The translations under genes and the position numbers were made by a program. This document shows positions 3,123-39,091 of a DNA stretch of 64,000 nt, piece by piece; the first letter of the stretch is position 1; each line of letters starts with the position of its first letter. The stretch covers positions 68 to 64,067 of the forward strand of contig JAHCRG010000016.1 in NCBI GenBank assembly GCA_020148045.1, read 5' to 3'. The stretch is from Patescibacteria group bacterium. GTDB lineage: Bacteria; Patescibacteriota; Minisyncoccia; Minisyncoccales; GWA2-38-27. The notes under the pieces were generated by a model. That model had not been told where the DNA came from and made no database searches. It saw nothing but the letters and a program-made list of their open reading frames with translations.

Positions 3123-4046
3123 ATGATTATTTTTCTTTATGGTGAAGATACATATAGGATGAGGGAGAAACTGAAAGAGATAATTGAAAGATATAAGAAA
3201 ATCCATAAAAGTGGGTTGAATTTGAAGTATTTTGATGATTTTACTAATTTGAAAGATGAAATCAGGCAAACCTCAATGTTTAAAGAGAAAAAATTAGCGG
3301 TTATAACTGATGTTTTTGCAAATCCTGATTTTAAAGAAAAGTTTTTAGAAAATAAAAAAGATTTTTTGAAAACAGAAGATATAATTTTGTTTTATCAGGA
3401 AGGAGAAATCAATAAAAATAACTCTTTATTTAAATTTCTTAAAAAAAATGCTAAGTCCCAAGAATTTAAATTCCTTGGAGGCCAAAATTTAAAAACTTGG
3501 ATTAAAAAAGAATTTGATAGATATGAAACAAAGATAGATTCAGAGGTTTTGGAAAAACTTATTGAATATATTGGCAATGACCTTTGGCAGATGAGCAATG
3601 AAATAAGAAAACTGGCGAGTTTTAAAAAAAATAAAGCAGTTCAAGCAGAGGATATTGAGCTTTTAGTAAGGTCAAAAATTGAAACTGATATTTTTAAAAC
3701 CATTGACGCTATAGCTGAAAAAAACAAAAAACAGGCCTTGAAACTGCTTCATAAACATTTAGAAAAAGGCGATTCTCCTTTATATTTACTGGCAATGATA
3801 AATTATCAATTCCGAAATCTTTTAATAGTTAAAGACCTTATCGAAAAGCACAAACCATACAATATCATTTTGAGAAAGAGCGGTCTTCATCCTTTCGTGG
3901 TTAAAAAAAGTTATTATCAATCACAGAAATTTAGTTTCCAAGAACTAAAAAAAATCTACCAGAAAATTTTTAAGGTAGACCTCGATATTAAAACTGGACG
4001 AATACAACCTGAAATAGCACTTGATTTGCTAATTACGGAAATTTAA
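3123..4046 (+). CDS. holA: DNA polymerase III delta subunit
   Basis: Typical HolA length and N-terminus (IFLYGED.Y). Helical C-terminal domain pattern. Confidence 0.75.
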   Translation: MIIFLYGEDTYRMREKLKEIIERYKKIHKSGLNLKYFDDFTNLKDEIRQTSMFKEKKLAVITDVFANPDFKEKFLENKKDFLKTEDIILFYQEGEINKNNSLFKFLKKNAKSQEFKFLGGQNLKTWIKKEFDRYETKIDSEVLEKLIEYIGNDLWQMSNEIRKLASFKKNKAVQAEDIELLVRSKIETDIFKTIDAIAEKNKKQALKLLHKHLEKGDSPLYLLAMINYQFRNLLIVKDLIEKHKPYNIILRKSGLHPFVVKKSYYQSQKFSFQELKKIYQKIFKVDLDIKTGRIQPEIALDLLITEI

Positions 4047-4051
4047 CAGGG

Positions 4052-4315
4052 TTAAACTTTTTTGTTAACTAATTTTGTTATTCTTGATTTCTTTCTATCT
4101 GCAGTATTTTTCTTGATTACATTAACTTTAGCTGCTTTATCTAATATTTTATACACCTGAGGCAAAAGTTTCTTTGCTTGTTCAATTTTTTTTTCTAAAA
4201 CTAAAGTCCTAACCTTTTTTATCAGGTCTTTCATTTTCTTTTTATAAACAAGATTTCTGGCTCTTCGTTTTACATTTTGACGAAGAGCTTTTTTAGCAGA
4301 TTTTGTTATCGGCAT
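4052..4315 (-). CDS. rpsT: 30S ribosomal protein S20
   Basis: Basic 87-aa protein starting MPITKSAKKALRQ..RR..N, as in S20. Confidence 0.9.
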   Translation of the reverse strand: MPITKSAKKALRQNVKRRARNLVYKKKMKDLIKKVRTLVLEKKIEQAKKLLPQVYKILDKAAKVNVIKKNTADRKKSRITKLVNKKV

Positions 4316-4418
4316 TGCAATTGTATATTAGCAGAAACAATAATTTTTTCAAGTTTTATTAATTGTATTTTTATAATAAATAAGTTAATATCATAGAATT
4401 AGCACTTTAACATAAAAA

Positions 4419-5918
4419 ATGAACCAAAGAATGGGAGATAATATAATGGCTGAAAAAAAACAAGATAATCAGTTTTTGCTTAGAGTGATCGTCCCAGCTT
4501 ATCCAGAGGTTAATATCTATAGCCGTATTGCGAAAAAAACAACAGCTTTAGGACCTATTATGATTGCGACATCGGCAAACGAACTATCAGGATGTAGAGT
4601 AAAAGTAACTGACGAAAACAATTTTAAAGGACCTAGGGGTAAAGACGGACTGCCTGATCATAGAGCGTTGCAAAAAGAAGATAAAGCTTCGGTAGTTGCA
4701 GTATATTGCGGACTTAGTAGCACGATAGAAAGAGCTTGGGAGACAGCTTCGTTCTATCATCGGCAAGGAGTATTTGTTATTGCTGGTGGGCTTCATGCTC
4801 ATAATTGCCCCGAGGAAACTTTAAATCATGATTTTGATATAGTTGTTCATGGTGACGGAGACGTGGTTATTCAGCAAATTCTTCTTGCTTTTGAAGAAAA
4901 AAACTTTGAAAATATTCCAGGAGTCTCTTATCTTGAAGAAGGTCAATTTAAAAGAAATGGTCCGAAAAGGAATGAAATTTTAAATTTGGACTCTCTACCT
5001 TTTCCAAATTTTGGTCTTTTGGAATACAATAATAAAATAAAGACCTATCCAATAAGTCGTATTAGAGGGTGTAATGAAGGTTGTGAATATTGCGGCGTGA
5101 GGGGAAAAGTTCGTTTTGCTAGCCCAAAACATTTATTTGATACAGTTGGTTGGTTGGTGAAAACGAGAAAAGCAAAATCTTTTTTTATTGTTGATGATAA
5201 TTCTAATGCAGACCACGAAGGAACCAAAGAATTCTTTGAGATGATTTTAACAAAGTATAAGCGACTTAAATTTGCGGTTCAAGAAAGACTGGATGATGCT
5301 GAAGATATCGGATTTTTAAAGCTTATGAAAAAAGCAGGAGTTAGAATAGTTTGCATAGGAGCTGAATCGCCTATTGACGAAGAACTAGAAGCTATGAAAA
5401 AAGGATACGATTCTTCTCAAATGCTTAAATGGCTGAAGATTTGGCGATCTCTCTTTTGGACACATGTAATGTTTATCTTTGGTTATCCTTTAAAAGAAAA
5501 AGTAACACTTATTAATGCCAGAGAAAGATTCATACTTTGGAAAAGATTTATTCGTAAGGCTTCTCCAGATAGTGTTCAAATACTACTTCCCATTCCTTTA
5601 GTAGGAACGCGTCTTAGAAAGAGAATAATGAACAGAATCTTTCCTAAAATTCAGTGGAAAAAATATGATGGAAACTTTCCTTGTTTTGAACCCAAAAACA
5701 TGACTTTAAAGGAACTTCAAGAAATGCATATCAAGCTTATGAGTAGATTTTATAACCCATGGAGTATTTTTCGGATTCCTTTGAAAATTATTACTCTTCC
5801 TCTCCATTCTTTATTTTTAGGATGGGAAGACTGGCATCGTGGATGGGATGGAATCATCACAAAATATGGAGGATATTTGACTATTAAGAAATGGAAGAAA
5901 CACAACTTGAAGAAATAA
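4419..5918 (+). CDS. B12-binding-domain radical SAM protein
   Basis: CNEGCEYC (CxxxCxxC) cluster motif preceded by a B12-binding-like Rossmann segment (VIAGGLHA..VVHGDGD). The exact start (4419 or 4446) is uncertain. Confidence 0.8.
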   Translation: MNQRMGDNIMAEKKQDNQFLLRVIVPAYPEVNIYSRIAKKTTALGPIMIATSANELSGCRVKVTDENNFKGPRGKDGLPDHRALQKEDKASVVAVYCGLSSTIERAWETASFYHRQGVFVIAGGLHAHNCPEETLNHDFDIVVHGDGDVVIQQILLAFEEKNFENIPGVSYLEEGQFKRNGPKRNEILNLDSLPFPNFGLLEYNNKIKTYPISRIRGCNEGCEYCGVRGKVRFASPKHLFDTVGWLVKTRKAKSFFIVDDNSNADHEGTKEFFEMILTKYKRLKFAVQERLDDAEDIGFLKLMKKAGVRIVCIGAESPIDEELEAMKKGYDSSQMLKWLKIWRSLFWTHVMFIFGYPLKEKVTLINARERFILWKRFIRKASPDSVQILLPIPLVGTRLRKRIMNRIFPKIQWKKYDGNFPCFEPKNMTLKELQEMHIKLMSRFYNPWSIFRIPLKIITLPLHSLFLGWEDWHRGWDGIITKYGGYLTIKKWKKHNLKK

Positions 5919-8458: not shown

Positions 8459-9862
8459 ATGATTTCTAAAAAAGATTTTATAAAAATTAATAATTGGTTA
8501 TGGGAGATCCCTAAATCTTTTAGACAAGATATGCGGGTTCCTGCAAGGATTTATACTTCGGAAAAGATGTTAGAAGATATTTTTCAAGATGACTCAATTC
8601 AGCAATTGATTAATGGAACTACTCTGCCTGGTATAGTGAGATATGGTATAGCTATGCCTGATTGCCACGAAGGTTATTCAGTGCCTATAGGTTTTGTGGG
8701 CGCAATCAAAATTCCAGACGGAGTTATTTCACCTGGAGCCTGCGGTTTCGACATTAATTGCGGAATGAGATTGTTGAAATCAGAACATGCTGAGAAAGAA
8801 ATTAAGCCGTATTTGGAAAACTTGGCAACTGAAATTCAAAAGCAAGTTCCTTCTGGATTAGGAAGAGGAAGGGGAATAAAATTGAGTATTGAACAAATTG
8901 ATAAGATTTTACGACAAGGAACTCATGTTTTACTGAAACAAGGATACGGCGAAAAAGAGGATGTTGAAAATTGCGAGGCATCTGGGAGATTAGATTGGGC
9001 AGATGCTTCTGTTGTTTCGGACCATGCTAAAAATAGAGGGAGAGATCAGGTTGGAACTCTTGGGAGTGGGAATCATTTTTTGGAGATTCAAAAAGTAGCT
9101 GAAATCTTTGATGAGAAAATAGCTGAAACTTTTGGATTGTTTAAAGACCAAGTTGTAATAATGATTCATACTGGTTCAAGAGGTCTTGGCCATCAGGTTT
9201 GCACAGATTATTTGAAAACAATGATTCCGGCTATGAGCAAGTATAATATAAAAGTTCCGGATAAAGAATTTGCCTGTGTTCCTTTTGATTCTTCTGAAGG
9301 ACAGAGATATTTTTCAGCCATGGCTTCAGCTGCTAATTATGCTTGGGCTAACCGCTATATGATTGCTCATTATGTAAGAAAGGCGTGGAAAGAGGTAATG
9401 GGGCAGAAAGAAAAACTTGAATTATTATATGATGTGGCTCACAACATTATTAAAAAAGAAAAATACAAAATTGATGGAAAAGATACTGAAGTCATTGTTC
9501 ATCGAAAAGGAGCGACAAGGGCTTTTCCTGGACAGCCAGTCCTGCTTCCCGGGAGTATGGGAACTTCTTCATATATTTTAATAGGGACAGAAAAAGGAGA
9601 AGAGGCATTTTTTTCAACCTCTCATGGGGCAGGCAGGAGAATGTCTAGACGGGAAGCAATGAGAACTATTTCGGGAAGAGAAGTGATAGATAAATTAAAG
9701 CAAAAAGGGATAATTATAAAATGTCGTTCAATGAGGGGAATTGCCGAAGAGGCGCCTCTGGCTTACAAAGATATAGATAATGTAGTAGAAGTTGTTCATA
9801 ATGCTGGTTTGTCAAAAAAGGTAGTCAAACTCGTTCCTTTAGCAGTGATAAAAGGAGAGTAG
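8459..9862 (+). CDS. rtcB: RNA-splicing ligase RtcB
   Basis: GSGNHFLE, HTGSRGLGHQV, SHGAGR motifs over the full length. Confidence 0.9.
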   Translation: MISKKDFIKINNWLWEIPKSFRQDMRVPARIYTSEKMLEDIFQDDSIQQLINGTTLPGIVRYGIAMPDCHEGYSVPIGFVGAIKIPDGVISPGACGFDINCGMRLLKSEHAEKEIKPYLENLATEIQKQVPSGLGRGRGIKLSIEQIDKILRQGTHVLLKQGYGEKEDVENCEASGRLDWADASVVSDHAKNRGRDQVGTLGSGNHFLEIQKVAEIFDEKIAETFGLFKDQVVIMIHTGSRGLGHQVCTDYLKTMIPAMSKYNIKVPDKEFACVPFDSSEGQRYFSAMASAANYAWANRYMIAHYVRKAWKEVMGQKEKLELLYDVAHNIIKKEKYKIDGKDTEVIVHRKGATRAFPGQPVLLPGSMGTSSYILIGTEKGEEAFFSTSHGAGRRMSRREAMRTISGREVIDKLKQKGIIIKCRSMRGIAEEAPLAYKDIDNVVEVVHNAGLSKKVVKLVPLAVIKGE

Positions 9863-19732: not shown

Positions 19733-20851
19733 ATGCCAAAAGTTGGTATCGCTACAATTCCACTTGATTATGGCCGGTGCCCGCGTTGGTTATTTGAAAG
19801 GATGAAGCGGCTTTCCCGAGGGATAATGTTGGCTATCCGGGAAGAGTTTGGGCCAGAAGAAATTTTGAAAAGATTATCTGACCCGGTTTGGTTTCAGAGC
19901 TTGGGGTGTGTAATTGGATTTGACTGGAATAGTTCCGGTTTAGCCACTACTACTTTAGGGGCTTTAAAAGTTGGGCTTTTTGATATTCAAGATGAATTAG
20001 GTATTTATGTTTGTGGAGGTAAGAAAGAATCAAGAAAAACACCCCAAGAAATTGAGGCCTATGGAATTTCTCGTGGCTTTCCATTTGCTCCAAATTTAAT
20101 TTATGCCTCAAAAATGGCAGCCAAAGTTGATAGCTCGGCTTTGCAGGATGGTTTTCAAATTTATGCCCACAATTTGATTTTTTCAAAATCAGGTCAGTGG
20201 ACAGTAATCCAGCAGGGAATGAATATTAATGTCCAAAAAGCTCGGCGTTATCATTGGTTGTCTTCCGGAATTAAAGATTTCGTTGAGGAGCCGCATTCAG
20301 GGATTATTTCTGATGCTCGGGGTAAGCCCTTAAATTTAACTGCTAAAGAGAGCAATAAAAATAGGGAGGTTTCAACCGGCTTGGTAGCAGAGGAGCCAAA
20401 AACATTTTTAAAAGATTTAGATTTAATTCAGACCAAAAGGTCAAAAAATCTTACCCTAATGGAACTTAGAGATATTGAGTTTTATTGGCATCCAGTTGTG
20501 CAGGAGAAATTTGATTTAAAGCGGCTTGAGAAAACTATTTTCTTCGCCAATGCTTTAAAGCCAAAAAACTTTGAACAACTCTTAGCCTTAAAAGGCATTG
20601 GTCCCAAAACAATTCGTGCTTTGAGTTTAGTTTCCGAATTAATCTACGGCGCCAGACCCTCTTACGAAGATCCTGCAAGGTATTCATTTTCAGTAGGCGG
20701 GAAAGACGGCACTCCTTTTTTCGTAGAAAGAGATGTTTATGATAAGGTATTGGATGTAATGGAAAAAGGCATTAAAAAAAGCAAAATCTCCTTACGCGAA
20801 AAAGTTGAAGCCCAAAAAAGATTGAATAGTTCATATATTCGTGGGGTATGA
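19733..20851 (+). CDS. DUF763 family protein
   Basis: IPLDYGRCPRWLFERM, DPVWFQSLGCVIGFDWNSSG. Start moved to ATG 19733 (the track used a TTG). Confidence 0.6.
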   Translation: MPKVGIATIPLDYGRCPRWLFERMKRLSRGIMLAIREEFGPEEILKRLSDPVWFQSLGCVIGFDWNSSGLATTTLGALKVGLFDIQDELGIYVCGGKKESRKTPQEIEAYGISRGFPFAPNLIYASKMAAKVDSSALQDGFQIYAHNLIFSKSGQWTVIQQGMNINVQKARRYHWLSSGIKDFVEEPHSGIISDARGKPLNLTAKESNKNREVSTGLVAEEPKTFLKDLDLIQTKRSKNLTLMELRDIEFYWHPVVQEKFDLKRLEKTIFFANALKPKNFEQLLALKGIGPKTIRALSLVSELIYGARPSYEDPARYSFSVGGKDGTPFFVERDVYDKVLDVMEKGIKKSKISLREKVEAQKRLNSSYIRGV

Positions 20852-21321
20852 AAAAATTGTCATTTTATGTTGTTTGTGATAATATACGGAGTTTAGAGAA
20901 TATTGGTTCTATTTTTAGAACTGCTGACGCTTTGAATGTTGATAAGATTTTTCTTTGCGGAATTTGCGGGAGACCACCTAGTCAGAAGATATCAAAAAGC
21001 GCGCTGGGCGCGGAAAAATGGATTGCTTGGGAGTATTGCGGCAAGACTTGGCGAGCAATAGAGAGGTTAAAAAAAGAGAATGTTTTTATTGTGGCTTTGG
21101 AGCAAGAAGAAAATAGTTTAGTTTATACTAAATTCAAGCCAAAATTCCCTTTAGCTTTAATAATAGGGAATGAAGTCAAAGGAGTTTCGCCCTCTGTTTT
21201 AAAAAGAGCAGATAAAATAATATCTTTACCAATGTTTGGCAGAAAAGAATCTCTGAACGTGGCAGTTGCTTTTGGCATAGCAGCTTACAGAATTCGCTGC
21301 CCCCATAGTTCAATTGGATAG
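20848..21321 (+). CDS. SpoU/TrmH-family RNA 2'-O-methyltransferase
   Basis: ENIGSIFRTA, IIGNEVKGVS, SLNVAVAFGI motifs. The last 23 nt of the ORF lie inside tRNA-Arg(CCG). Confidence 0.8.
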   Translation: MKKLSFYVVCDNIRSLENIGSIFRTADALNVDKIFLCGICGRPPSQKISKSALGAEKWIAWEYCGKTWRAIERLKKENVFIVALEQEENSLVYTKFKPKFPLALIIGNEVKGVSPSVLKRADKIISLPMFGRKESLNVAVAFGIAAYRIRCPHSSIG

Positions 21322-21919: not shown

Positions 21920-23410
21920 ATGGTTGAAAAAAAACAACAAAACTTAATATCTCGTCCTCCAGTTGTAGTAGTTTTAGGTCATGTTGATCATGGCAAGAGC
22001 TCTATTTTGGAAAAAATTAAGGATTTGAAGATTACAGAGAAAGAATCAGGAGGGATTACCCAGCATATTGGAGCTTATGAGGTTGAACATCAAGGCAAGA
22101 AAATTACTTTTATTGATACTCCTGGTCATGAGGCGTTTTCAGCCATGCGTTCCAGAGGGGCAAAAGTAGCTGACATCGCGATTTTAGTAATAGCTGCTGA
22201 AGAAGGAATAAAGCCGCAAACTAAAGAAGCAATTTCTCATATTAAGAAAGCTGGAATTCCAATGATTGTGGCTATTAATAAAATGGATAAGCCAGGAGCT
22301 GATCCTGAAAAGGTTAAAAGAGAATTATCAGTCCAAGATATTTCAGTTGAATCAATGGGAGGCAAGATTCCTTCAGTAGAAATATCGGCAGAAACAGGCA
22401 AGGGAATTCCCGAGCTTTTAGAATTAATTTTGTTAGTGGCTGAAATGGAAGGTTTTAAAGCAGATGTTTCCAAACCAGCTGAAGGAGTGATAGTTGAATC
22501 ATATTTAGATTCTCAGCGAGGACCAACAGCTACTTTAATTTTGCAAAATGGAATCTTGAAAAGAGGCGATATATTAGGAACTTCTTCTGTTGTTGGCAAA
22601 ATTAGAATTATGGAAGATTTTCAGGGCTTATCTATTAAGCAGGCTTCTCCGTCAATGCCGGTTATTGTTTTAGGATTTGAAAATGTCCCTAGAGTTGGGG
22701 AGAGATTTAAAGTTTTTACTGATATTGAAACGGCTAAGAGAAGACTTGAAGGAATAGTTAAGCCGGGCCCTCAAGTGCTTGATATTGAGCCAGATAAGAA
22801 AGTTTTAAATTTGATTTTAAAAGTTGATGTTTTAGGGTCGCTTGAAGCAATTGAAGAGGTTTTGAAAAAGCTTCCTCAGGAGAAAGTTATTTTAAGAATT
22901 TTGAAGGGGGAAGTGGGGGAGATAAATGAGTCAGATGTGAAGTTAGCCGGAGGAGCTAAAGCTATAATAGTCGGTTTTAGAGTGAAAACAAATCCAATTG
23001 CCCAAAAATTAGCCTTGAGGGAAAAAATAAAGATAATGTGTTTTGAGGTAATCTATGAATTAGTTCAAGAAGTTAGAGGGGTTTTGGAAAAAAAGGTCAG
23101 ACCCGAAGTAGTGAGGATTGATTTGGGAAAAGTTAAAATTTTAGCAATTTTTCGAACAGAAAAAAATCGCCAGATTATTGGAGGAAAAGTAATTGAAGGT
23201 GAGGTGAAAAGAGGGGCTTCTCTGGAGGTTTTCCGAAATGAGGAAAAAGTTGGCAGAGGGAAAATTGTTAATCTTCAGCGAGATAAAAAAGAGGTTGAGG
23301 AATTAGCAAAGGGAGCAGAATGCGGAATACTTTATGAAGGAGACATTAAGATGGAAGAAGGGGACGTGCTGTGGGTATACACAGAGGAGAGAAGAAAAGG
23401 AGAATTATAA
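21920..23410 (+). CDS. infB: translation initiation factor IF-2 (short form lacking the N-terminal region)
   Basis: G-domain GHVDHGKSS, DTPGH, NKMD, followed by IF-2 domains II-IV. Confidence 0.9.
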   Translation: MVEKKQQNLISRPPVVVVLGHVDHGKSSILEKIKDLKITEKESGGITQHIGAYEVEHQGKKITFIDTPGHEAFSAMRSRGAKVADIAILVIAAEEGIKPQTKEAISHIKKAGIPMIVAINKMDKPGADPEKVKRELSVQDISVESMGGKIPSVEISAETGKGIPELLELILLVAEMEGFKADVSKPAEGVIVESYLDSQRGPTATLILQNGILKRGDILGTSSVVGKIRIMEDFQGLSIKQASPSMPVIVLGFENVPRVGERFKVFTDIETAKRRLEGIVKPGPQVLDIEPDKKVLNLILKVDVLGSLEAIEEVLKKLPQEKVILRILKGEVGEINESDVKLAGGAKAIIVGFRVKTNPIAQKLALREKIKIMCFEVIYELVQEVRGVLEKKVRPEVVRIDLGKVKILAIFRTEKNRQIIGGKVIEGEVKRGASLEVFRNEEKVGRGKIVNLQRDKKEVEELAKGAECGILYEGDIKMEEGDVLWVYTEERRKGEL

Positions 23411-23411
23411 T

Positions 23412-23759
23412 ATGAGTAATCGCATTCAACGCGTTAATGCGTTGATAAAAAATGAGTTAAGTCAGATTCTTTTAAAAGAGGTTGGTTTTCCAAAGGATAC
23501 TTTAGTAACTATTACCCGGGTGGAAAGTTCGGTGAATTTGAATCAGGCAAAAATATATATTTCAGTAATGTCTGAAGATAATATTGATGAAGTTTTCGAG
23601 ATTTTAAATAGAAGAATTTATGATATTCAGCAGACCCTAAACAGACGTTTAAAAATGAGACCAATTCCTAAAATAGAATTTAAAAAAGAAGAAAAAACTG
23701 AGGAAGCAGCAAGGGTTGAGGAGCTTTTGGAGGAGATAAAAAATGAAGAGAAGGGTTGA
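23412..23759 (+). CDS. rbfA: ribosome-binding factor A
   Basis: R.QRVN.LIKNELSQIL start. Start moved to ATG 23412. Confidence 0.85.
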   Translation: MSNRIQRVNALIKNELSQILLKEVGFPKDTLVTITRVESSVNLNQAKIYISVMSEDNIDEVFEILNRRIYDIQQTLNRRLKMRPIPKIEFKKEEKTEEAARVEELLEEIKNEEKG

Positions 23760-23775
23760 AAAAAGAGTAAGAAAA

Positions 23776-23784
23776 TGTTATAAT
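23776..23784 (+). promoter_or_regulatory. extended -10 element TGTTATAAT directly upstream of tRNA-Cys
   Basis: Only 8 nt separate the hexamer from tRNA nucleotide 1 (23793). Confidence 0.4.
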
Positions 23785-23792
23785 AAAATAGT

Positions 23793-23865
23793 GGCCTGGT
23801 AGCCAAGTAGCTAAGGCGGCAGTTTGCAAAACTGTTATACGCGAGTGCAAATCTCGCCCAGGCCT
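23793..23865 (+). tRNA. tRNA-Cys(GCA)
   Basis: Acceptor GGCCTGG/CCAGGCC, discriminator U, anticodon loop TTGCAAA. Unusual T-loop TGCAAAT and D-loop AGTAGCTA. Confidence 0.85.
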
Positions 23866-23873
23866 CAAGACAT

Positions 23874-23959
23874 GCCGGGGTGATGGAATTGCTAGACATG
23901 AAGGACTTAAAATCCTTTGGAGATAAAACTCCGTGCGGGTTGGAGTCCCGCCCCCGGCA
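23874..23959 (+). tRNA. tRNA-Leu(UAA)
   Basis: Acceptor GCCGGGG/CCCCGGC, anticodon loop CTTAAAA, long variable arm. Unusual T-loop TTGGAGT and D-loop GAATTGCTAGA. Confidence 0.85.
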
Positions 23960-23963
23960 CAAA

Positions 23964-23997
23964 TAAAAAAAGCCCCCGTCTTGGCGGGGGCTTTAAG
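23964..23997. terminator. bidirectional terminator between tRNA-Leu(UAA) and the 3D-domain gene
   Basis: AGCCCCCG/CGGGGGCT 8-bp stem flanked by an A-run and a T-run. Confidence 0.75.
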
Positions 23998-24007
23998 GTT
24001 TTATGTT

Positions 24008-24517
24008 TTAGTTTTCTAAAATTTCGGCTTCAACTATTTTTACCCCAAAGCTTTTGGCTTCTTCATAAGAATCCATCCAGATATCAAAATGATAAGATCC
24101 TTTTTTCCAATTCATTCGGTCCTCGACTACAAAAACTTTATCTCCGTAAATCTCAGGAAATCTTATCTCGGTCCCAAAGGAGTACCTATTATTAGCTACA
24201 ATTCCTTGTTCAACTGTTTTTCCTGAAGCGGTTAGAAATGGAGTATTGTCTGTCTGCCAAGTAGTACTGGAATAAGCAGTGACTACCACTTTTACTTTCT
24301 TGACTTTAACAGGAGCTTCGGGATTAGATACTGCTAAGAGAGAATTTTCTTGGATTGTAGCCAGTTCTAAAGCAGAAGCCGGCTCATCGGCTTTTGCCTG
24401 CTGCATTTTTGTTATTCCTAATCCTAAACCACTGGCAAGAATTCCAGCCGTTATTAAAATAACTAAGATTTTTTTGGCTCCCAGATAAGGATCCTCTTTT
24501 TCAATATAAATATCCAT
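24008..24517 (-). CDS. 3D-domain (RlpA/MltA-like double-psi beta-barrel) secreted protein
   Basis: N-terminal TM/signal segment. VTAYSS...TASG...GIVA...FVVEDR....FDIW pattern. Confidence 0.7.
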   Translation of the reverse strand: MDIYIEKEDPYLGAKKILVILITAGILASGLGLGITKMQQAKADEPASALELATIQENSLLAVSNPEAPVKVKKVKVVVTAYSSTTWQTDNTPFLTASGKTVEQGIVANNRYSFGTEIRFPEIYGDKVFVVEDRMNWKKGSYHFDIWMDSYEEAKSFGVKIVEAEILEN

Positions 24518-24546
24518 TCTAAAACCCCAATTTTAGGGGTTTTATC

Positions 24547-24574
24547 ATATTAACTTATCCACAGGCCTTGTCAA
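24547..24574 (-). promoter_or_regulatory. sigma70-type promoter of the 3D-domain gene
   Basis: Minus-strand reading: TTGACA (24574-24569), 16-nt spacer, TAATAT (24552-24547). Confidence 0.55.
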
Positions 24575-24598
24575 GTCTTTTTAGGTATTTTTCGAGTG

Positions 24599-24670
24599 AG
24601 CGGGTGAGCGGAATTGAACCGCCATCTCAACCTTGGCAAGGTTGCATAATAACCACTATACGACACCCGC
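24599..24670 (-). tRNA. tRNA-Gly(GCC)
   Basis: Acceptor GCGGGTG/CACCCGC, anticodon loop TTGCCAA, T-loop TTCAATT. Confidence 0.85.
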
Positions 24671-24732
24671 CTTCGTCAGCCGTAGCTGGCTTCGGCGGGC
24701 GAAGCCCGCAGAGACAGCGTAGCTGGACTTAG

Positions 24733-24806
24733 TGCCGCGAGTCAGACTTGCACTGACCACCCCAGCTTTTTCAGAGCTGTGCTCTAACTACCTGAGCTAT
24801 CGCGGC
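24733..24806 (-). tRNA. tRNA-Phe(GAA)
   Basis: Acceptor GCCGCGA/TCGCGGC, anticodon loop CTGAAAA. Unusual T-loop TGCAAGT and D-loop AGGTAGTTA. Confidence 0.85.
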
Positions 24807-24844
24807 CTAATTAAATTTTATTACATTTTTCCAAAAATTTCCAG

Positions 24845-24920
24845 TGGTGGGCGGTGAAGGATTCGGACCTACGACCTCCTCGGTGTAAACGAGGCACTCT
24901 AACCACTGAGCTAACCGCCC
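24845..24920 (-). tRNA. tRNA-Val(UAC), the only tRNA here with an encoded CCA
   Basis: Acceptor GGGCGGT/ACCGCCC, anticodon loop TTTACAC, T-loop TCCGAAT. 3' ACCA is encoded (24845-24848). Confidence 0.85.
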
Positions 24921-24923
24921 ATG

Positions 24924-25006
24924 TGCCCAGGGTGGGACTTGAACCCACACGCTCTTACGAGCCATGGCCCTCAACCATGTATGTATACCGATTCCATCAC
25001 CTGGGC
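24924..25006 (-). tRNA. tRNA-Leu(GAG)
   Basis: Acceptor GCCCAGG/CCTGGGC, anticodon loop TTGAGGG, long variable arm, T-loop TTCAAGT. Confidence 0.85.
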
Positions 25007-25428
25007 TCTTCTTTTTTCTCTTCCGTTGGTTTTTCTCTAACGATTTCTTCTTTTGGTTCTTCCTCAGCTATTGCTTCAGTAAATTCTTTCCTTTTTAGCC
25101 GGGCTTTTTTGCCTTTCGCTTTTCTTAAGTAATAAAGCTTTGCCCTCCTAACTTTTCCTCTTTTTAAAATTTCTATTTTTTCAATAGTCAGGGAGTGAAT
25201 AGGAAAAATTTTCTCTACTCCAATCCCAGAAATCACTTTTCTTACAGTTATTGTAGCAGAAATTCCTTTTCCATGCTTTTTGGCAAGAACTATACCCTCA
25301 AAGGCCTGAAGTCGCTCCTTATCTTTTTCTTTGACCTTTTGATAAACCCGAACAGTATCACCTGGACGGATGTCAGGCAGACCTTTTTTTAATTGGGTTT
25401 TGGTAAAAGTTTCAATTTTTGTAGGCAT
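24997..25428 (-). CDS. rplS: 50S ribosomal protein L19 with low-complexity C-terminal tail
   Basis: RPGDTVRV..KV.E....R.Q.FEG.V core. The reading frame only stops 10 nt inside tRNA-Leu(GAG). Confidence 0.9.
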   Translation of the reverse strand: MPTKIETFTKTQLKKGLPDIRPGDTVRVYQKVKEKDKERLQAFEGIVLAKKHGKGISATITVRKVISGIGVEKIFPIHSLTIEKIEILKRGKVRRAKLYYLRKAKGKKARLKRKEFTEAIAEEEPKEEIVREKPTEEKKEEPR

Positions 25429-26033
25429 AATTTTAAATCATCTGGCAATGCTGACTTAAATTCTTTTATTTCTCCATCTGGCAGCTTTATTTTAATGTAG
25501 CTGGCATGTAAAAATTGGCGTTTCAATCCTTCTGGGCAGGGCTGATTTTTAAAACCATACATTTTATCTCCAGCAATTGGATGGCCAAGATAAGAAAAAT
25601 GGCATCTGATTTGATGCTTTCTTCCTGTTTTGGGAGCAACTTCAACTAAAGTGTAATCTTTAAATCTTTCTATCACCTTATATTCACTAATTGCTTCTCT
25701 TTTTCCTTTGGAGCCAGGCTCAGCAGGAAGATAAACTTTTTGCTTTTTTCTGTCTTTCGGAGCTCTACCAATTAAGGCTTCAATCACCCCTTGATTATTT
25801 TTAAGATTTCCAACAACTAAAGTAATATATTTCTTTTTTACCTTTCTATTTTTAAATTGTTTTTGCAAAAAAATCAAGGCCTTATCATTTTTTGCGATTA
25901 GAAGAACTCCCGAAGTTTCTTTATCTAACCTATGAACTTTTTTCAAATCAGGATATAAATCACTCGTTACAATCCCTGCTGGTTTATCAATCACCAAGAC
26001 ATCATTATCCTCATAAATTATTTTCGTCTCCAT
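25389..26033 (-). CDS. RluA-family pseudouridine synthase
   Basis: VIDKPAG, HRLDKETSGVLL catalytic motif. ATG lies 1 nt after tRNA-Val(GAC). Confidence 0.85.
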   Translation of the reverse strand: METKIIYEDNDVLVIDKPAGIVTSDLYPDLKKVHRLDKETSGVLLIAKNDKALIFLQKQFKNRKVKKKYITLVVGNLKNNQGVIEALIGRAPKDRKKQKVYLPAEPGSKGKREAISEYKVIERFKDYTLVEVAPKTGRKHQIRCHFSYLGHPIAGDKMYGFKNQPCPEGLKRQFLHASYIKIKLPDGEIKEFKSALPDDLKLCLQKLKLLPKPN

Positions 26034-26034
26034 G

Positions 26035-26107
26035 TGGGCGCTGAGGGATTCGGACCCACGACCTTCTCGATGTCACCGAGACGCGCTAACCACTGCGCCA
26101 AGCGCCC
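26035..26107 (-). tRNA. tRNA-Val(GAC)
   Basis: Acceptor GGGCGCT/AGCGCCC, anticodon loop GTGACAT, T-loop TCCGAAT. Confidence 0.85.
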
Positions 26108-26114
26108 ATTATTG

Positions 26115-26186
26115 TGCGCACGGATGGATTCGAACCATCAACCTCGGCCTTATAAGGACCTTGCTCCGCCATTGAGCTACGTGCGC
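26115..26186 (-). tRNA. tRNA-Ile(UAU)
   Basis: Acceptor GCGCACG/CGTGCGC, anticodon stem AGGTC/GGCCG (one mismatch, one G-U), loop CTTATAA, T-loop TTCGAAT. Confidence 0.75.
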
Positions 26187-30158: not shown

Positions 30159-30359
30159 GTGAATATCTTAAAAAAACTTCAGAAACAGCCAGAACATGTA
30201 AGAAAGATGATTCTTTGGTCAGTGGTCATTATAGTGGGTTTGGTTTTAGCAGTTTTATGGATTAATAGCTCGTATAAAGGAATTCAAAAGCTTGAATCAC
30301 AAAACATTATTCAAGAATTAAATGTTCCTAAAATAGAGATGCCTGCAATCAATGAATAA
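30159..30359 (+). CDS. small membrane protein
   Basis: One TM helix. GTG start. 8-nt overlap with gyrA. Confidence 0.4.
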
Positions 30360-32832
30360 AGAACAGAAAACAACAAGCAAAGTGGGGAGTATAAGGGATC
30401 GGGAGATAACCGAAGAGATGAGAGAGTCCTACATTGATTACGCAATGTCAGTTATTATTTCGCGAGCCCTTCCTGATGTTCGCGATGGCTTAAAACCTGT
30501 TCATCGCCGAATTTTGTATGCCATGCACGAGATGGGACTAGGATATACTGCTAAATTTAGAAAATCGGCTGCCGTAATTGGAGAAGTTCTTGGGAAATTC
30601 CATCCTCACGGCGACCAGGCAGTTTATGATGCTGCAATGAGAATGGCTCAAGATTTTTCATTAAGATATCCTTTGATTCAAGGACAAGGGAATGTAGGCT
30701 CTATTGACGATCCGAGCGAGTTTGCAGCTATGAGATATACCGAGATGAAGCTCTCAAAAATTGGCGAAGAAATGTTAAGAGATATTGGAAAAGATACAGT
30801 TGATTTTAGACCTAACTATGATGGTACAAGAAAAGAACCAATAGTTTCACCCTCTCCTCTGCCTCAACTTCTTTTAAATGGTTCTTTGGGAATTGCCGTT
30901 GGGATGGCTACTAATATCCCTCCTCACAATCTTTCTGAAGTTTCAGACGCTTTAATTTACTTGATTGACCATCCTAAGGTAACAATCGAGGACCTTTTTA
31001 AATTCATCAGAGGTCCGGATTTCCCAACCGGAGGGGCAATTTTTGGCAAAAAAGAAATAATTTCCGCCTATTCTCAAGGGAAAGGGCCAATTGTAGTTCG
31101 TGGGAAAGCAGAGGCAGTGGAAAAAAAGGAACGGCGTCAACAAATTATTATTACTGAGATTCCTTTCCAAGTTCAAAAGTCAAGTTTAATTGAGCAGTTT
31201 GCCAAATTGGTTCAAGACAAAAGAATTCAAGGGATAAAGGATATCAGGGATGAATCAGACAGAGAAGGGATGAGAATTGTGCTTGACCTTCAAAGAGACG
31301 CTTATCCCAAGAAGGTTTTAAACCGGCTTTACAAGTTTAGTGATTTGCAAAAAACCTTTCATCTAAATATGTTAGCCCTGGTAGATGGAATTCAGCCAAG
31401 GGTATTATCGCTTGTTGACTTTTTAAATTATTTTATCGTTCACAGGAAAGAAGTGGTTGTTAGAAGGACAAAATATGATTTAGAGCGGGCCAAAGAAAGA
31501 ACCCATATTTTAGAAGGTTTAAACAAGTGCCTGACAAAGATTGATGCGGTAATAAAAACGATTAAGGCCTCAAAAAATAGAGAGGAAGCTCAGAAGAATT
31601 TAATCAAGAAATTTAAATTAACTGAAATTCAGGCTAATGCTATTTTAGAAACAAAATTAGCTGCTTTGGCAAAGTTAGAAAGAAAGAAAATTGAGGATGA
31701 ACTTAAAGAAATGCGGGCTAAAATTAAAGAGTTTACGGCAATTCTTAAAAGCCCTCAGAAAATAAAAGAAGTTGTCAAAAAAGAATTAGAAGAACTTAAA
31801 GAGAATTTTGGGGATGAAAGGAAAACAAAAGTTTTTGCTCAAAAAGTTGGAGAGATTGCAGAAGAGGATTTAATCCCCTTAGAGGAGACAATTATTACCT
31901 TAACCCGGGGGGGTTATATTAAGAGAATAAATCCTGCCACTTATAAAATTCAAAGAAGAGGAGGAAAGGGGATTTTGGGAATGAAAACCTTACAGGATGA
32001 TGTTGTTGAGCATTTTCTTTTAGCTCAGACACACGACTCATTGCTTTTCTTTATTGATTCGGGAAAAGTTTTCAGAACTTTGGTTTATGAAATTCCTGAA
32101 GGGGCACGGGTGGCTCGGGGCAGAGGCCTTTTGAATTTCATTGAGGTTTCCCCTGAAGAAAAGGTTTTATCTTTAATGACTCTCGGTAAGGAGGACATCA
32201 ATCTGGGGATAAAAAATTTAGTAATGGTAACCCAAAATGGTATAATAAAGAAAACTGCTTTGGGGGAGTTTAAAAATGTTCGGAGGTCCGGCTTGATTGC
32301 AATAAAACTTAGAAAAAGCGACCTTTTAAAAAAAGTTGCCAAGAGCACCGGCCAAAATGAGATAATTATAGTAACAAAAAAAGGCCAATCCATCCGATTT
32401 AAAGAGCAAGATATAAGAGAAATGGGGAGACCGGCTTCGGGTGTCAAGGGAATTAGGTTAAGAAAGGGAGATAAGGTGGTGGGGATGGACATGATAGAAC
32501 AAGAAACAAGAAACAAGAAACAAGAAACAAGAAAATATTTATTAGTAGTGACAGAGAATGGGTATGGGAAGAGAACAGATTTGAGAGAATACAAATTGCA
32601 AGGAAGAGGAGGAACGGGCATTAAAACAGCTAATATTACTACCAAAACCGGAGAACTGGTTGCCTCAAGGCTTTTAACAGGCGAGGAGGAAGATTTGATT
32701 GTTATTTCTCAAAAGGGTCAGGTAATTAGGGCAAAGATTTCCTCAATTCCCAAAATCAGCCGAGCAACTCAAGGAGTAAAAATAATGAGATTAGACGAAA
32801 GAGACAAAGTTGCTTCAGCCACCTGCATTTAA
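30352..32832 (+). CDS. gyrA: DNA gyrase subunit A
   Basis: [19 protein letters not shown] (catalytic Tyr), C-terminal beta-pinwheel repeats. Contains an in-frame heptamer repeat at 32497-32535. Confidence 0.95.
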
Positions 32833-35061: not shown

Positions 35062-35825
35062 TTTATCTTGCAGACACTTGCCATTTTCTTAAGTTTCCTA
35101 AAGCCGAAGGAAACAAAAAAGGCAAGACCGCTTAAAATAATAACTAAAGAGATAACTGAGGAAGTTAATAAGAGAGAATTTTGACTCGTTAGTCCTTCCT
35201 CAATTCCTATTATAGAAATATTGAAGAGACCATGCAAGAGAGTAGCAATTACTACTCCTTTGATAATTAATTTCAGCCGTTTTTTAGATTCAAAAAAAGA
35301 TAGAGCCAAAAAATAGCCCAGAGTTCCGGAACATAAAGCATGCAAAAAAGTAGCTCCGATAAAACGGAAAGAAGTAATAGCTATGGCTTCACCAAAAAGA
35401 AGAGGCCCTTTTCCGGAAAATAAAACCAGGATATTCTCCAAAGCAGCAAAACCTAAAGCTATAATAATCATATAAAGTATAGTATCTACAGGTTCATCAA
35501 ATTCTGGATTATTTATTACTTTTTCTCTAACAATTAGATATTTAGAGCACTCTTCCACCAAAGCTATTATAAGGAAGTGGTATAAAGCAAAAAATAAAAA
35601 AGGGAAAGTTTTAAACCAGTTTTCGCCAACTATAACTAAAGCTCCGGAAATTCCTATTTCTATCAGGGCAGCTATTATAGCTGCTAGCATTCCATAAAAG
35701 AAAATTTTTAAAATCATTCTGTTTGATTCAGGATGAGCATCTTTTCGCAAGTAAAAGAGAAGCCAGATAACACTGGGAGCTAAACCAAGAAAGATGTAGA
35801 GGAGATAAATCATGATTTTGGCCAT
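35058..35825 (-). CDS. PrsW-family intramembrane protease
   Basis: Polytopic protein with VEECSKYL and HALCSG / HGLFN motifs. Confidence 0.65.
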   Translation of the reverse strand: MAKIMIYLLYIFLGLAPSVIWLLFYLRKDAHPESNRMILKIFFYGMLAAIIAALIEIGISGALVIVGENWFKTFPFLFFALYHFLIIALVEECSKYLIVREKVINNPEFDEPVDTILYMIIIALGFAALENILVLFSGKGPLLFGEAIAITSFRFIGATFLHALCSGTLGYFLALSFFESKKRLKLIIKGVVIATLLHGLFNISIIGIEEGLTSQNSLLLTSSVISLVIILSGLAFFVSFGFRKLKKMASVCKIK

Positions 35826-37855
35826 TTTTCAATCATTAAGCATTTCGTTTTGTTCTTAATGGGTATTTTCTGATAAATTTCTTCTGTTATAAATGGAATA
35901 AATGGATGTAAAAGTTTTAAAGAAGATGATAGAACATAAAGTAAAATCTTTTGAGTTTTTTTATTATCTTGCTTTTTAGATGCTTCAATATATACATCAC
36001 AAAAATCATGCCAAAAGAAATTATATAAAGTATGGGTTGCCTTCCCAAACCGAAAATTCTCCAAATCATTATTAACTGACTTTGTTGTTTTGTTTAACTG
36101 TTTTAAAATCCTTTTATCCGCAGAGGTTAAATTCTTCTCCTTGGGTTTAGAAATTAGAAATTCGAAATTAGAAATTCCGATTTGTCCCAAGACAAATCGG
36201 CTTGCATTCCATATTTTATTACAAAACTTTTTCCCCATTATCATATTATCTTTTACAAATCTCATATCTTGGCCTCCCATAATTTGGTAGGCAATTCCAA
36301 AACGAGTAGCGTCAGCGCCATAGTCATTGATAAGATTTATCGGGTCTACGCCGGTGCCAAGGGACTTTGACATTCTTTTTCCCTCTCTGGTTAGGATAGT
36401 GCTATGAATATAAACATCTTTAAATGGAATTTTTTCCATAAACTCTATTCCAGAAAAAATCATCCGGGCAACCCAAAGATTTATTATATCTCGAGCAGTA
36501 CTCAAAACATCGGTAGGATAAAAAGTTTTAAGGTCTTTAACCGAAGAGGGCCAGCCGAGCGTGGCAAAAGGCCAGAGAGCAGAGCTAAACCAAGTATCTA
36601 AGACATCTTTTTCTTCTTTTAAGGGAATCTTATGGCCCCACCAGATTTGGCGGGAAATACACCAATCTTTTATATTTTTCAGCCAATCAAAATATGGTTT
36701 TTCAAAACTTTTGGGATGAAATTTTATTTTACCCTCTTTTACTGGTTTTTCTGCCATTTTAGCTAATTTGTCCATTTTCAAAAACCATTGCTTAGAAAGA
36801 ATTGGTTCCAGAACAGTATTACATCTATAACAACGGGCAATATTATGGGTATATGGTTCTGTTTTCTCCAAAATTCCAATTTTTTTCATATCTTCTACAA
36901 TCTGCTTTCTCGCTTTCATCACCGTGAGCCCAGCATATTTTTCAGCCAGTTTTGTCATTCGTCCATCCGGACCGATTACTTGTTTTTTTTCAAGTTTGTA
37001 TTTTTCGCCTATTTCAAAATCATGAAGATCATGGGCAGGTGTTACCTTCATAGCGCCGGTACCAAAACTCATATCAACTGCTCTATCTCCAATAACCTTC
37101 ATTTTATTTTTACCTAAAACGGTTTGAATAACAATGGTTTTACCAATGTATTTTTTATATCTCGGGTCTTTCGGATTCACCGCCACGGCGGTGTCACCTA
37201 ATTTTGTTTCCGGCCTAACCGTAGCAATGGTAATAGGCCCGTATTTAATGTAATACATTTCAGCTGGTTCTTCTTTATATACAACCTCAAGGTCTGACAA
37301 ACTTGTGTAACATCTTGGACACCAATTAACAGCTCTTTTTCCCCGATAAATCCACCCCTTTTTATAATAATGTAAAAAGGCCTCTTTAACTGCAAGAGAA
37401 TAATCTTTATCCATAGTGAATCTGGTTTTGGACCAATCGCAAGAGCAGCCCAATTTTTTTAACTGGTCTAAAATAATATCTCCGTATTTATCTTTCCATT
37501 TCCATATTTCCTTGATGAATTTTTCTCGGCCCAAATCAAATCTGGTTAAGCCCTCTTTTTTAAGTTTTTTCTCAACTACGTTTTGGGTAGCAATTCCGGC
37601 GTGGTCTGTTCCAGGGAGCCAAAGGGCTTTAAATCCCTGCATTCTTTTCCAACGAATTAGAGTATCTTGAATAACTGCATTCAGAGCATGGCCCATATGA
37701 AGTCCGCCAGTAACATTTGGTGGAGGGATAACAATTGTATATGGCTTTTTGTGGCGTTTGGGAAGTTTATCTGGATTGAAAAAACCACTCTTAAGCCAGA
37801 GCTTATAGATTCTGTCTTCAACGTCTTTAGGACTATAAGTTTTAGATAGTTTCAT
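35810..37855 (-). CDS. valS: valine--tRNA ligase (short form)
   Basis: PPPNVTGGLHMGH (HIGH) and KMSKSLG motifs, plus the CP1 editing region. Confidence 0.95.
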   Translation of the reverse strand: MKLSKTYSPKDVEDRIYKLWLKSGFFNPDKLPKRHKKPYTIVIPPPNVTGGLHMGHALNAVIQDTLIRWKRMQGFKALWLPGTDHAGIATQNVVEKKLKKEGLTRFDLGREKFIKEIWKWKDKYGDIILDQLKKLGCSCDWSKTRFTMDKDYSLAVKEAFLHYYKKGWIYRGKRAVNWCPRCYTSLSDLEVVYKEEPAEMYYIKYGPITIATVRPETKLGDTAVAVNPKDPRYKKYIGKTIVIQTVLGKNKMKVIGDRAVDMSFGTGAMKVTPAHDLHDFEIGEKYKLEKKQVIGPDGRMTKLAEKYAGLTVMKARKQIVEDMKKIGILEKTEPYTHNIARCYRCNTVLEPILSKQWFLKMDKLAKMAEKPVKEGKIKFHPKSFEKPYFDWLKNIKDWCISRQIWWGHKIPLKEEKDVLDTWFSSALWPFATLGWPSSVKDLKTFYPTDVLSTARDIINLWVARMIFSGIEFMEKIPFKDVYIHSTILTREGKRMSKSLGTGVDPINLINDYGADATRFGIAYQIMGGQDMRFVKDNMIMGKKFCNKIWNASRFVLGQIGISNFEFLISKPKEKNLTSADKRILKQLNKTTKSVNNDLENFRFGKATHTLYNFFWHDFCDVYIEASKKQDNKKTQKILLYVLSSSLKLLHPFIPFITEEIYQKIPIKNKTKCLMIEKWPKS

Positions 37856-38983: not shown

Positions 38984-39055
38984 GGCCCCATCGTCTAGTG
39001 GTTAGGACATTTGATTTTCAATCAAAAAACCGGGTTTCGACTACCCGTGGGGCCG
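38984..39055 (+). tRNA. tRNA-Glu(UUC)
   Basis: Acceptor GGCCCCA/TGGGGCC, anticodon loop TTTTCAA, T-loop TTCGACT. Confidence 0.85.
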
Positions 39056-39091
39056 CAAAAATTAAAAATACCACAAAAAAGCCCAAAGGGC

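Follow-up and report, generated by a model that had tools for sequence, protein, structure and literature searches.

tRNA genes with non-canonical, covarying elbow residues in a Patescibacteria group bacterium

We describe here five tRNA genes from a 64,000-nucleotide stretch of a Patescibacteria group bacterium (GTDB lineage Bacteria; Patescibacteriota; Minisyncoccia; Minisyncoccales; GWA2-38-27; GenBank assembly GCA_020148045.1, contig JAHCRG010000016.1, positions 68 to 64,067 of the forward strand; the whole stretch is called the window below) that depart from the canonical tRNA elbow, where the D-loop docks onto the T-loop. The organism belongs to the ultra-small bacteria of the candidate phyla radiation (CPR). 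tRNA-Cys and tRNA-Phe carry A18 together with G55, tRNA-Leu(UAA) carries C19 together with G56, and both tRNA-Val genes carry C55. The genes are intact, they have canonical versions at syntenic positions in relatives, positions 18 and 55 as well as 19 and 56 covary strongly in bacteria and in phages, and the rest of the T-loop is retained. We consider it probable, at roughly 78%, that these variants are functional translational tRNAs that use alternative elbow pairs and do without pseudouridine at position 55 (Psi55).

G18, G19, T54, Psi55 and C56 are taught as invariant, and few RNA modifications are as conserved as Psi55. The canonical elbow consists of the reverse Hoogsteen T54-A58 pair, the G18-Psi55 contact and the G19:C56 pair, and reviews describe G18, G19, U54, Psi55 and C56 as universal, being conserved in every tRNA analysed (PMC4810234, PMC9023262). 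In this canonical elbow, G18 is intercalated between residues 57 and 58, with one hydrogen bond joining it to Psi55, and G19:C56 forms an exposed flat pair (PMC4810234). None of the five variants has the full set of G18, G19, U54, U55 and C56; U54 is kept in all five.

Five of fifteen tRNA genes have altered elbow residues

ARAGORN called 15 tRNA genes in the window, which is AT-rich (35% G+C), and the Rfam model RF00005 returned the identical 15 and nothing else, all scoring 49-69 bits where the gathering score is 29. Ten of the 15 combine GG in the D-loop with a UUC(R)A T-loop, and five have a non-UUC T-loop. These five were also called by ARAGORN and score 51.5-66.7 bits on RF00005. An initial annotation, made from the sequence letters, had already described ten canonical and five deviant tRNAs, and the ARAGORN calls, Rfam matches and Infernal alignments reproduce these states exactly. 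The range that it gave, positions 23793-26107, contains all five variants and 7 of the 15 tRNAs, with the other 8 elsewhere in the window.

The first variant is tRNA-Cys(GCA) (23793-23866, plus strand; 62.0 bits), with an A18:G55 elbow. Its D-loop is AGUAGCUA, with A18 at 23809 and G19 at 23810, and its T-loop, at 23846-23852, reads UGCAAAU (U54 G55 C56 A57 A58 A59 U60), with G55 at 23847. It is followed by the class II tRNA-Leu(UAA) (23874-23960, plus strand; 51.5 bits), in which the pair between positions 19 and 56 is swapped to C19:G56. Here, the D-loop GAAUUGCUAGA places G18 at 23891 and C19 at 23892, and the T-loop UUGGAGU (23940-23946) places G56 at 23942. tRNA-Phe(GAA) (24732-24806, minus strand; 59.0 bits) has an A18:G55 elbow, formed by the D-loop AGGUAGUUA, with A18 at 24789 and G19 at 24788, and the T-loop UGCAAGU (24752-24746), with G55 at 24751. 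Both tRNA-Val genes lie on the minus strand and have the T-loop UCCGAAU with a normal G18 G19. These are tRNA-Val(UAC) (24845-24920; 66.7 bits; T-loop 24867-24861, C55 at 24866) and tRNA-Val(GAC) (26034-26107; 61.2 bits; T-loop 26054-26048, C55 at 26053). We further noted a U50-U64 mismatch in the T-stem of both tRNA-Val genes, and a 3' CCA that is encoded in tRNA-Val(UAC) only and is missing from the other 14 tRNAs of the window.

The cloverleaf energies of the variants differ from the minimum free energy by no more than a few kcal/mol, the same as for the canonical tRNAs, and for tRNA-Leu(UAA) the cloverleaf is itself the minimum-free-energy fold. The anticodon loops, as drawn by Infernal and ARAGORN, are normal seven-nucleotide loops with U33. 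For Cys, Phe, Leu(UAA), Val(UAC) and Val(GAC), neither the 64-kb window nor any of the syntenic loci described below has a second gene.

Position 55 is G in tRNA-Cys and tRNA-Phe and C in both tRNA-Val, and the uridine that serves as the TruB substrate is therefore missing. As predicted by the initial annotation, Psi55 would thus be impossible on four of the five variants; the fifth, tRNA-Leu(UAA), retains U55 beside G56. With A18, tRNA-Cys and tRNA-Phe would likewise carry no 2'-O-methylguanosine at position 18 (Gm18).

The variants occupy the positions of canonical orthologues

Using homologues of L19, we collected 19 loci of relatives (labelled L001-L019). The gene order is conserved and runs FtsH, tRNA-Ile(UAU), tRNA-Val(GAC), an RluA-family synthase, L19, tRNA-Leu(GAG), tRNA-Val(UAC), tRNA-Phe, tRNA-Gly, tRNA-Leu(UAA), tRNA-Cys, RbfA and IF2, so that the tRNAs can be compared as positional orthologues. 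Every locus that spans the position has one Cys and one Phe gene at the same place.

In tRNA-Cys, an NAG D-loop goes with a UGCAA T-loop in five lineages (the window, L003, L007, L013 and L015), and a UGG D-loop goes with UUCGA in three (L002, L010 and L016). The D-loops AAGUGGCAA of L016, paired with UUCGA, and AAGUAGCAA of L003, paired with UGCAA, are equal in length, which means that the change in tRNA-Cys is from G18 to A18 with G19 kept. The numbering of the Cys and Phe D-loops, which the initial annotation feared could be off by one, is upheld by such equal-length orthologues. The loop boundaries drawn by Infernal are also those read earlier, and a shifted register that would restore GG and TTC was ruled out by the Infernal alignments together with the equal-length canonical D-loops. 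tRNA-Phe has A18 with G55 in three lineages and with three different T-loops, namely UGCAAGU in the window, CGCACGU in L010 and AGCGUUA in L015, and has GG with UUC or UCC in the remaining syntenic lineages. The combination of D-loop and T-loop found in the tRNA-Phe of the window is shared with loci L136 and L122. No mixed 18/55 state was found in tRNA-Cys or tRNA-Phe among the syntenic relatives. The proposed matching of G55 by A18, and its recurrence as covariation in related genomes, are thus both borne out.

In the syntenic clade, C55 is seen again in Val(GAC), Val(UAC) and Phe, with GG in every case. It is present in Val(UAC) of L002, L003 and L016, and the window tRNA-Val(GAC) is identical to the L003 gene, with the L002 gene having a UUCAAAU T-loop and being otherwise 92% identical. 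Within the syntenic set, C19:G56 in Leu(UAA) was seen in the window only; outside that set it also occurs in L098.

The nearest relative in an FtsH tree is L002, with 96.8% amino-acid identity, and its Cys, Phe, Leu(UAA) and Val(GAC) tRNAs are all canonical. Short evolutionary distances are therefore enough for elbow states to flip. The identity between the window and L002 is 67-94% for tRNAs, for example 67% in Ser(CGA), 68% in Phe and 72% in Cys, and 80-95% for the flanking DNA, and many of the tRNA differences are compensatory stem changes. The tRNAs of this clade evolve unusually fast, at or above the rate of the flanking protein-coding DNA. Given their low identities, replacement of the Cys and Phe genes between the window and L002 is possible. 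Horizontal gene replacement is, however, not needed to account for the L002 difference, for which in-place divergence with compensatory stem changes is sufficient.

Positions 18 and 55 covary in bacteria and phages

Since A:G is a non-standard pair and variation in D-loop length makes MAFFT columns unreliable, we counted motifs directly under explicit rules. In a scan of 185,579 species genomes, the D-arm of tRNA-Cys was fixed as A18 G19 and the T-loop was left unconstrained. Among the matches listed, G55 (U-G-C at 54-56) was present in 115 of 119 A18 tRNA-Cys. The four exceptions consisted of one gene with GG, two damaged-looking Firmicutes genes and one true A18/U55. Hosts among the matches listed were mostly CPR groups, including Saccharibacteria, Parcubacteria/Paceibacterota, Peribacteria and others; further hosts were WOR-3, metagenome-assembled genomes (MAGs) labelled Cyanobacteria and one labelled Verrucomicrobiia.

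We then counted an unselected set, consisting of the 618 unique neighbouring tRNAs of all fetched loci, which had been chosen on neither position 18 nor position 55. G55 was found in 83 of them, belonging to 20 isoacceptor families, which points to many independent origins. A D-loop GG was missing from 81 of these 83 tRNAs (79 had AG) and was present in 528 of the 535 with U55 or C55. This association greatly exceeds what chance would give (Fisher p = 2.5e-90, with no correction for phylogeny). Four of the seven tRNAs that lacked GG without having G55 were covariants of positions 19 and 56 (C19:G56 twice and A19:U56 twice). Searching IMG/VR with the same Cys pattern yielded 24 phage contigs, and their other tRNAs lacked GG in 24 of 24 cases with G55 and had it in 166 of 168 cases with U55 or C55. 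The phage contigs are an independent replicate of the 18:55 association.

Double covariants confirm the register of D-loop and T-loop: in locus L096, Arg(UCU) combines the T-loop UGGAAAU with the dinucleotide AC, and Arg(UCG) combines UGAGAGU with AU. In the unselected CPR sample, A18:G55 was present in 31 of 39 unique tRNA-Cys and 13 of 42 tRNA-Phe. In the sampled CPR contigs, A18:G55 is thus what tRNA-Cys usually has, and it is not peculiar to the genome of the window. Identical elbow states were found in independent assemblies from JGI, ENA, NCBI and Logan.

Some of the fetched loci are rich in elbow variants. Nearly all tRNAs are A18:G55 in three arrays, with 14 of 14 in L096, 12 of 13 in L265 and 12 of 21 in L277. 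L265 and L277 are IMG/VR viral contigs, and L096 is a 14.7-kb contig labelled Verrucomicrobiia with its array at 3136-5909; a blastn comparison of L096 with INPHARED gave only a trivial 56-nt match to a tRNA-Asp. These three arrays include AGCGUUA and AGCGUAA loops, in which A54 occurs with U58 as a swapped 54:58 pair, as well as double covariants of A18 C19 with G55 G56. In L050 (Patescibacteria CR_Bin_021), 6 of the 11 tRNAs of the syntenic cluster have a non-canonical elbow, with A18:G55 in Cys, Leu(UAA) and Phe, A19:U56 in Val(UAC), and C55 in Ile(UAU) and Arg(CCU). Dense tRNA arrays were also seen in MAGs labelled 'Cyanobacteria bacterium', at 1379-4486 of L035 (28 tRNAs in about 3 kb) and 6834-7951 of L106. 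Here, A18:G55 is limited to Cys, Glu(CUC), some Met and Gly(UCC), and the Phe of L106 has an A54 loop, AUCGAGA.

Positions 19 and 56 covary in tRNA-Leu(UAA)

For the second pair, we scanned metagenomes for tRNA-Leu(UAA) with any residue other than C at position 56 and left the D-loop free. Genes with G56 had G18 C19 in 64 of 67 unique sequences, as expected if the C19:G56 of the window is the compensatory swap proposed by the initial annotation. Genes with U56 had G18 A19 in 8 of 11 cases and GC in none, with G:U wobbles making up the remainder, and A56 was rare. A19:U56 was also found in a tRNA-Val of L050 and a tRNA-Ala of L139.

An engineered counterpart is known from Aquifex tRNA-Leu, where LeuRS no longer charges the G19C mutant but charges the double mutant G19U:C56A again (PMC2377443). 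For charging by LeuRS, the pair between 19 and 56 must there be Watson-Crick but need not be G:C, which is the logic of the Leu(UAA) of the window. The Aquifex mutant, however, is a laboratory U:A pair, whereas the window tRNA has a natural C:G pair that is found in more than 60 distinct metagenome sequences.

G55 loops keep the other T-loop residues

Across 190 G55 T-loops, U54 was kept in 95%, A58 in 95%, a purine at position 57 in 100% (A 73%, G 27%) and U60 in 92%, and these loops therefore remain T-loops. T-loops outside tRNA have the consensus UGNRA (88.7%) or CGNRA and take up an intercalating base that is almost exclusively adenosine; tRNA is the exception, with U at position 2, and some contexts tolerate C or U at this position (bioRxiv 10.1101/2022.12.26.521914). 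Where two T-loops interdigitate, the residue that intercalates touches residue 2 of its partner (PMC4810234). tRNA-Cys and tRNA-Phe of the window have the residues of the generic motif, with a pyrimidine at U54, G55, a purine at A57 and A58. A at position 18 accompanies G55 in 79-81 of the 83 unselected cases; its intercalation is a three-dimensional property, which we infer.

The G55 tRNAs, UGC(A/G)A-N-U with A18, thus resemble the T-loops and receptors that occur in rRNA, in RNase P and in riboswitches for cobalamin and flavin mononucleotide (FMN). Shared features are the G at position 2, the purine (A favoured) at position 4, the A at position 5 followed by two more nucleotides, of which the one at position 7 is U, and the adenosine that the partner loop contributes. 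They differ in that the partner is a D-loop that also keeps the Watson-Crick pair between 19 and 56, in the context of a translating tRNA, with a geometry that we read from sequence.

C55 follows another pattern. In agreement with the C55 and normal GG described for both tRNA-Val, GG was kept in 18 of 18 unselected C55 tRNAs, which are concentrated in Val and Phe.

Modification enzymes and elbow-reading proteins

No TruB, TrmA or TrmFO domain was found by Pfam among the approximately 50 open reading frames of the window. A motif regular expression for truB found nothing, and neither the window nor 1.94 Mb of related loci gave a match at E<=1 in a tblastn comparison with an E. coli TruB query. 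In most bacteria, truB lies downstream of infB-rbfA. Across this clade, it is absent from that place and rbfA is followed by tRNA-Cys and tRNA-Leu(UAA) (23334-23960 in the window; L002-L017).

The valine-tRNA ligase (ValRS) of the window (35810-37855, minus strand; NCBIfam valS, 950 bits) has 681 aa and ends at the anticodon-binding domain. It lacks the C-terminal coiled-coil domain and has a gap of about 120 profile positions after residue 411. In the Thermus ValRS-tRNA complex (1GAX), the C-terminal coiled-coil reportedly touches the elbow of tRNA-Val. ValRS is listed among the elbow-binding proteins (PMC4810234), and a short ValRS alongside C55 tRNA-Val would fit a reduced reading of the elbow.

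Two further genes encode putative RNA-modifying enzymes. An RluA-family pseudouridine synthase of 214 aa without an N-terminal S4 domain (25389-26033, minus strand) lies between tRNA-Val(GAC) and L19 in all relatives. A SpoU-type 2'-O-methyltransferase of 157 aa (20848-21321, plus strand), with weak RlmB/TrmH matches below the cut-off, ends beside tRNA-Arg(CCG).

Other features of the window

A sixth tRNA deviates in its T-arm and was overlooked by the initial annotation, whose five T-arm deviants are real. This is tRNA-Glu(UUC) (38984-39056, plus strand), in which the Rfam alignment places U53:A61 in the position of the conserved G53:C61 that closes the T-loop. Its elbow is otherwise canonical (GG with UUCGACU). 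U:A at 53:61 is rare, occurring in 3 of 1024 unique tRNAs sampled.

In most bacteria, AUA is read by a lysidine-modified CAU tRNA. The tRNA-Ile(UAU) of the window (26114-26186, minus strand) keeps its UAU anticodon in every syntenic relative (L001-L019), and the clade appears to use this tRNA in place of the lysidine-modified one. The window also has a gene for a full-length RtcB RNA ligase (8459-9862, plus strand; Pfam RtcB, E = 1.6e-162), situated about 11 kb upstream of tRNA-Arg (21299), where its first tRNAs lie. Some close relatives carry a GyrA intein (Pfam Intein_splicing; 1239-4349 in L002 and 1-4024 in L010-L012), and the gyrA of the window (30352-32832) has none.

Discussion

The reading that we favour is that the five variants are working elongator tRNAs whose D-loop/T-loop docking is built from alternative contacts that were selected together. 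In tRNA-Leu(UAA), the outermost Watson-Crick tertiary pair would have flipped from G19:C56 to C19:G56, which would keep the flat stacked face used by the ribosome, RNase P and synthetases. In tRNA-Cys and tRNA-Phe, the G18/Psi55 contact would be exchanged for A18/G55. The G55 T-loop would then be of the generic (U/C)GNRA type, with A18 intercalated between 57 and 58 and contacting G55, so that the tRNA-specific elbow, in which UUCRA takes up a G, would have given way to the generic one, in which UGNRA takes up an A. In the two tRNA-Val, the change from U55 to C55 with an unchanged partner would be a tolerated single substitution, C being known at position 2 of other T-loops. From this evidence we infer how A18 and G55 are placed in three dimensions, that these tRNAs serve in translation and that they lack Psi55. 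Fast tRNA evolution and a reduced elbow-reading machinery in CPR may permit such elbow switches.

Compared with a canonical bacterial elongator, the variants keep the cloverleaf, the loop sizes, U54, a purine at 57, A58, U60, G53:C61, a purine at 18 and a Watson-Crick pair between 19 and 56. They differ in having A/G in place of G/Psi at 18/55, C:G in place of G:C at 19/56, or C55.

Several observations weigh against this reading. The search for paralogues spans 64 kb of the genome, and a canonical copy may exist elsewhere. Mixed states do exist, in tRNA-Cys of L077 and L261 (A18 with U55) and tRNA-Ile of L151 (GG with G55), which makes the 18:55 rule strong but not absolute. The Fisher statistic for G55 against missing GG in the 618 unselected tRNAs ignores shared ancestry. 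Some G55 loops depart from YGNRA, with C58 in CGCACGU and both A54 and U58 in AGCGUUA, and the analogy with the generic T-loop therefore does not cover every variant. Finally, C55 comes without a compensating change, leaving its effect on the G18 contact unexplained.

Alternatively, constraint on the elbow may be relaxed, so that in a reduced genome its contacts decay, as they do in many mitochondrial tRNAs of animals, and no specific alternative structure takes their place. The fast evolution of the tRNAs relative to their flanks would agree with this, as would the uncompensated C55, the U53:A61 of tRNA-Glu and the lack of TruB, TrmA and TrmFO domains in the window. Decay, however, predicts uncorrelated changes, whereas 18:55 and 19:56 shift together with almost no intermediates. 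The variants also retain U54, R57, A58, U60 and either G19 or C56, in loops of normal size. We therefore regard degeneration as unlikely.

It is quite unlikely that the variants are specialised tRNAs working outside translation, like the non-proteogenic tRNA-Gly of Staphylococcus cell-wall synthesis. Such a precedent exists in the NP1-3 tRNA-Gly of S. aureus, which lack G18-G19 and U55 and are barred from translation (PMC13443448, PMC4574755), and canonical paralogues were sought only within 64 kb of the genome and in the syntenic loci. The variants described here, however, replace rather than accompany the canonical gene at the syntenic position of close relatives. They concern several amino acids (Cys, Phe, Leu and Val in the window, and 20 isoacceptor families overall) and have normal seven-nucleotide anticodon loops and fully paired T-stems. 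The tRNA-Gly of S. aureus and S. epidermidis have U18/U19 without a matching partner, an extra 31-38 pair, an abnormal anticodon loop and weak EF-Tu determinants, and they coexist with proteogenic paralogues. The changes in the variants, by contrast, are compensatory. These staphylococcal tRNAs are the nearest bacterial precedent, and the window tRNAs differ from them on every testable point.

We also considered that the G55 loops might form GNRA-like tetraloops (G55-C56-A57-A58) in which 54 pairs with 59 to close the loop and position 60 is bulged out. A 54:59 pair is feasible in tRNA-Cys (U54/A59) and tRNA-Phe (U54/G59) of the window, and in the tRNA-Phe of L010 (C54/G59) and L015 (A54/U59). 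Among the 190 G55 loops, however, 180 have U54, and at position 59 there is a U in 96 loops, an A in 58, a G in 27 and a C in 9. The tetraloop model does not hold up, since U54 is mostly faced by another U at position 59, which makes a U-U mismatch the commonest combination, and 54 and 59 do not covary. The T-loop model explains why A18 goes with G55, which a closed tetraloop does not, and we hold the tetraloop to be very improbable.

Pseudogenes, assembly or sequencing errors and misdrawn loop boundaries are barely credible explanations, since departure from the consensus is the sole point in their favour, against normal bit scores, intact stems, the same states in independent JGI, ENA, NCBI and Logan assemblies, Infernal boundaries that agree and a numbering fixed by canonical orthologues. 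The view of the initial annotation that the variants are functional genes thus probably holds, given these scores, cloverleaf energies near the minimum, syntenic orthologues and strong covariation.

Covariation between D-loop and T-loop is not unheard of: statistics on the Rfam tRNA seed revealed one strong and two weaker covarying interactions, to which pseudogenes may have contributed (PMC7657543). That study names neither the bases involved nor a lineage, and it states no A18:G55 rule. We found no description of the A18:G55 rule or of elbow variants in CPR in the open-access literature, although they may have been described elsewhere.

On a wider and more tentative view, CPR and some phages would routinely translate with a second, 'riboswitch-type' elbow, consisting of A18 in UGNRA without Psi55, that is fixed in most tRNA-Cys and spreading to other isoacceptors, with the elbow-reading machinery (TruB, TrmA, elbow domains of synthetases, perhaps the contacts of RNase P and L1) reduced or altered. 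We regard this generalisation as possible but doubtful. Selection might also favour the alternative elbow itself, which would then be more than tolerated, for instance as a discrimination mark or as an escape from an enzyme or toxin directed at the elbow or T-loop.

To our knowledge, there has so far been no comparative evidence for the tertiary contact between 18 and 55, both residues being normally invariant, and the natural covariation reported here supplies it. The tRNA T-loop would be able to switch to the solution of UGNRA plus adenosine that is used by riboswitches and RNase P, which joins tRNA to the family of T-loop motifs. The variants provide sets of natural tRNAs that must work without Psi55, and in the A18 cases also without Gm18, which makes them useful for studying the role of TruB and Psi55. 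In CPR and phage genomes, tRNA annotation, pseudogene calls and modification predictions should not penalise elbow variants. For synthetic biology, these tRNAs offer orthogonal elbow designs that are ready for use.

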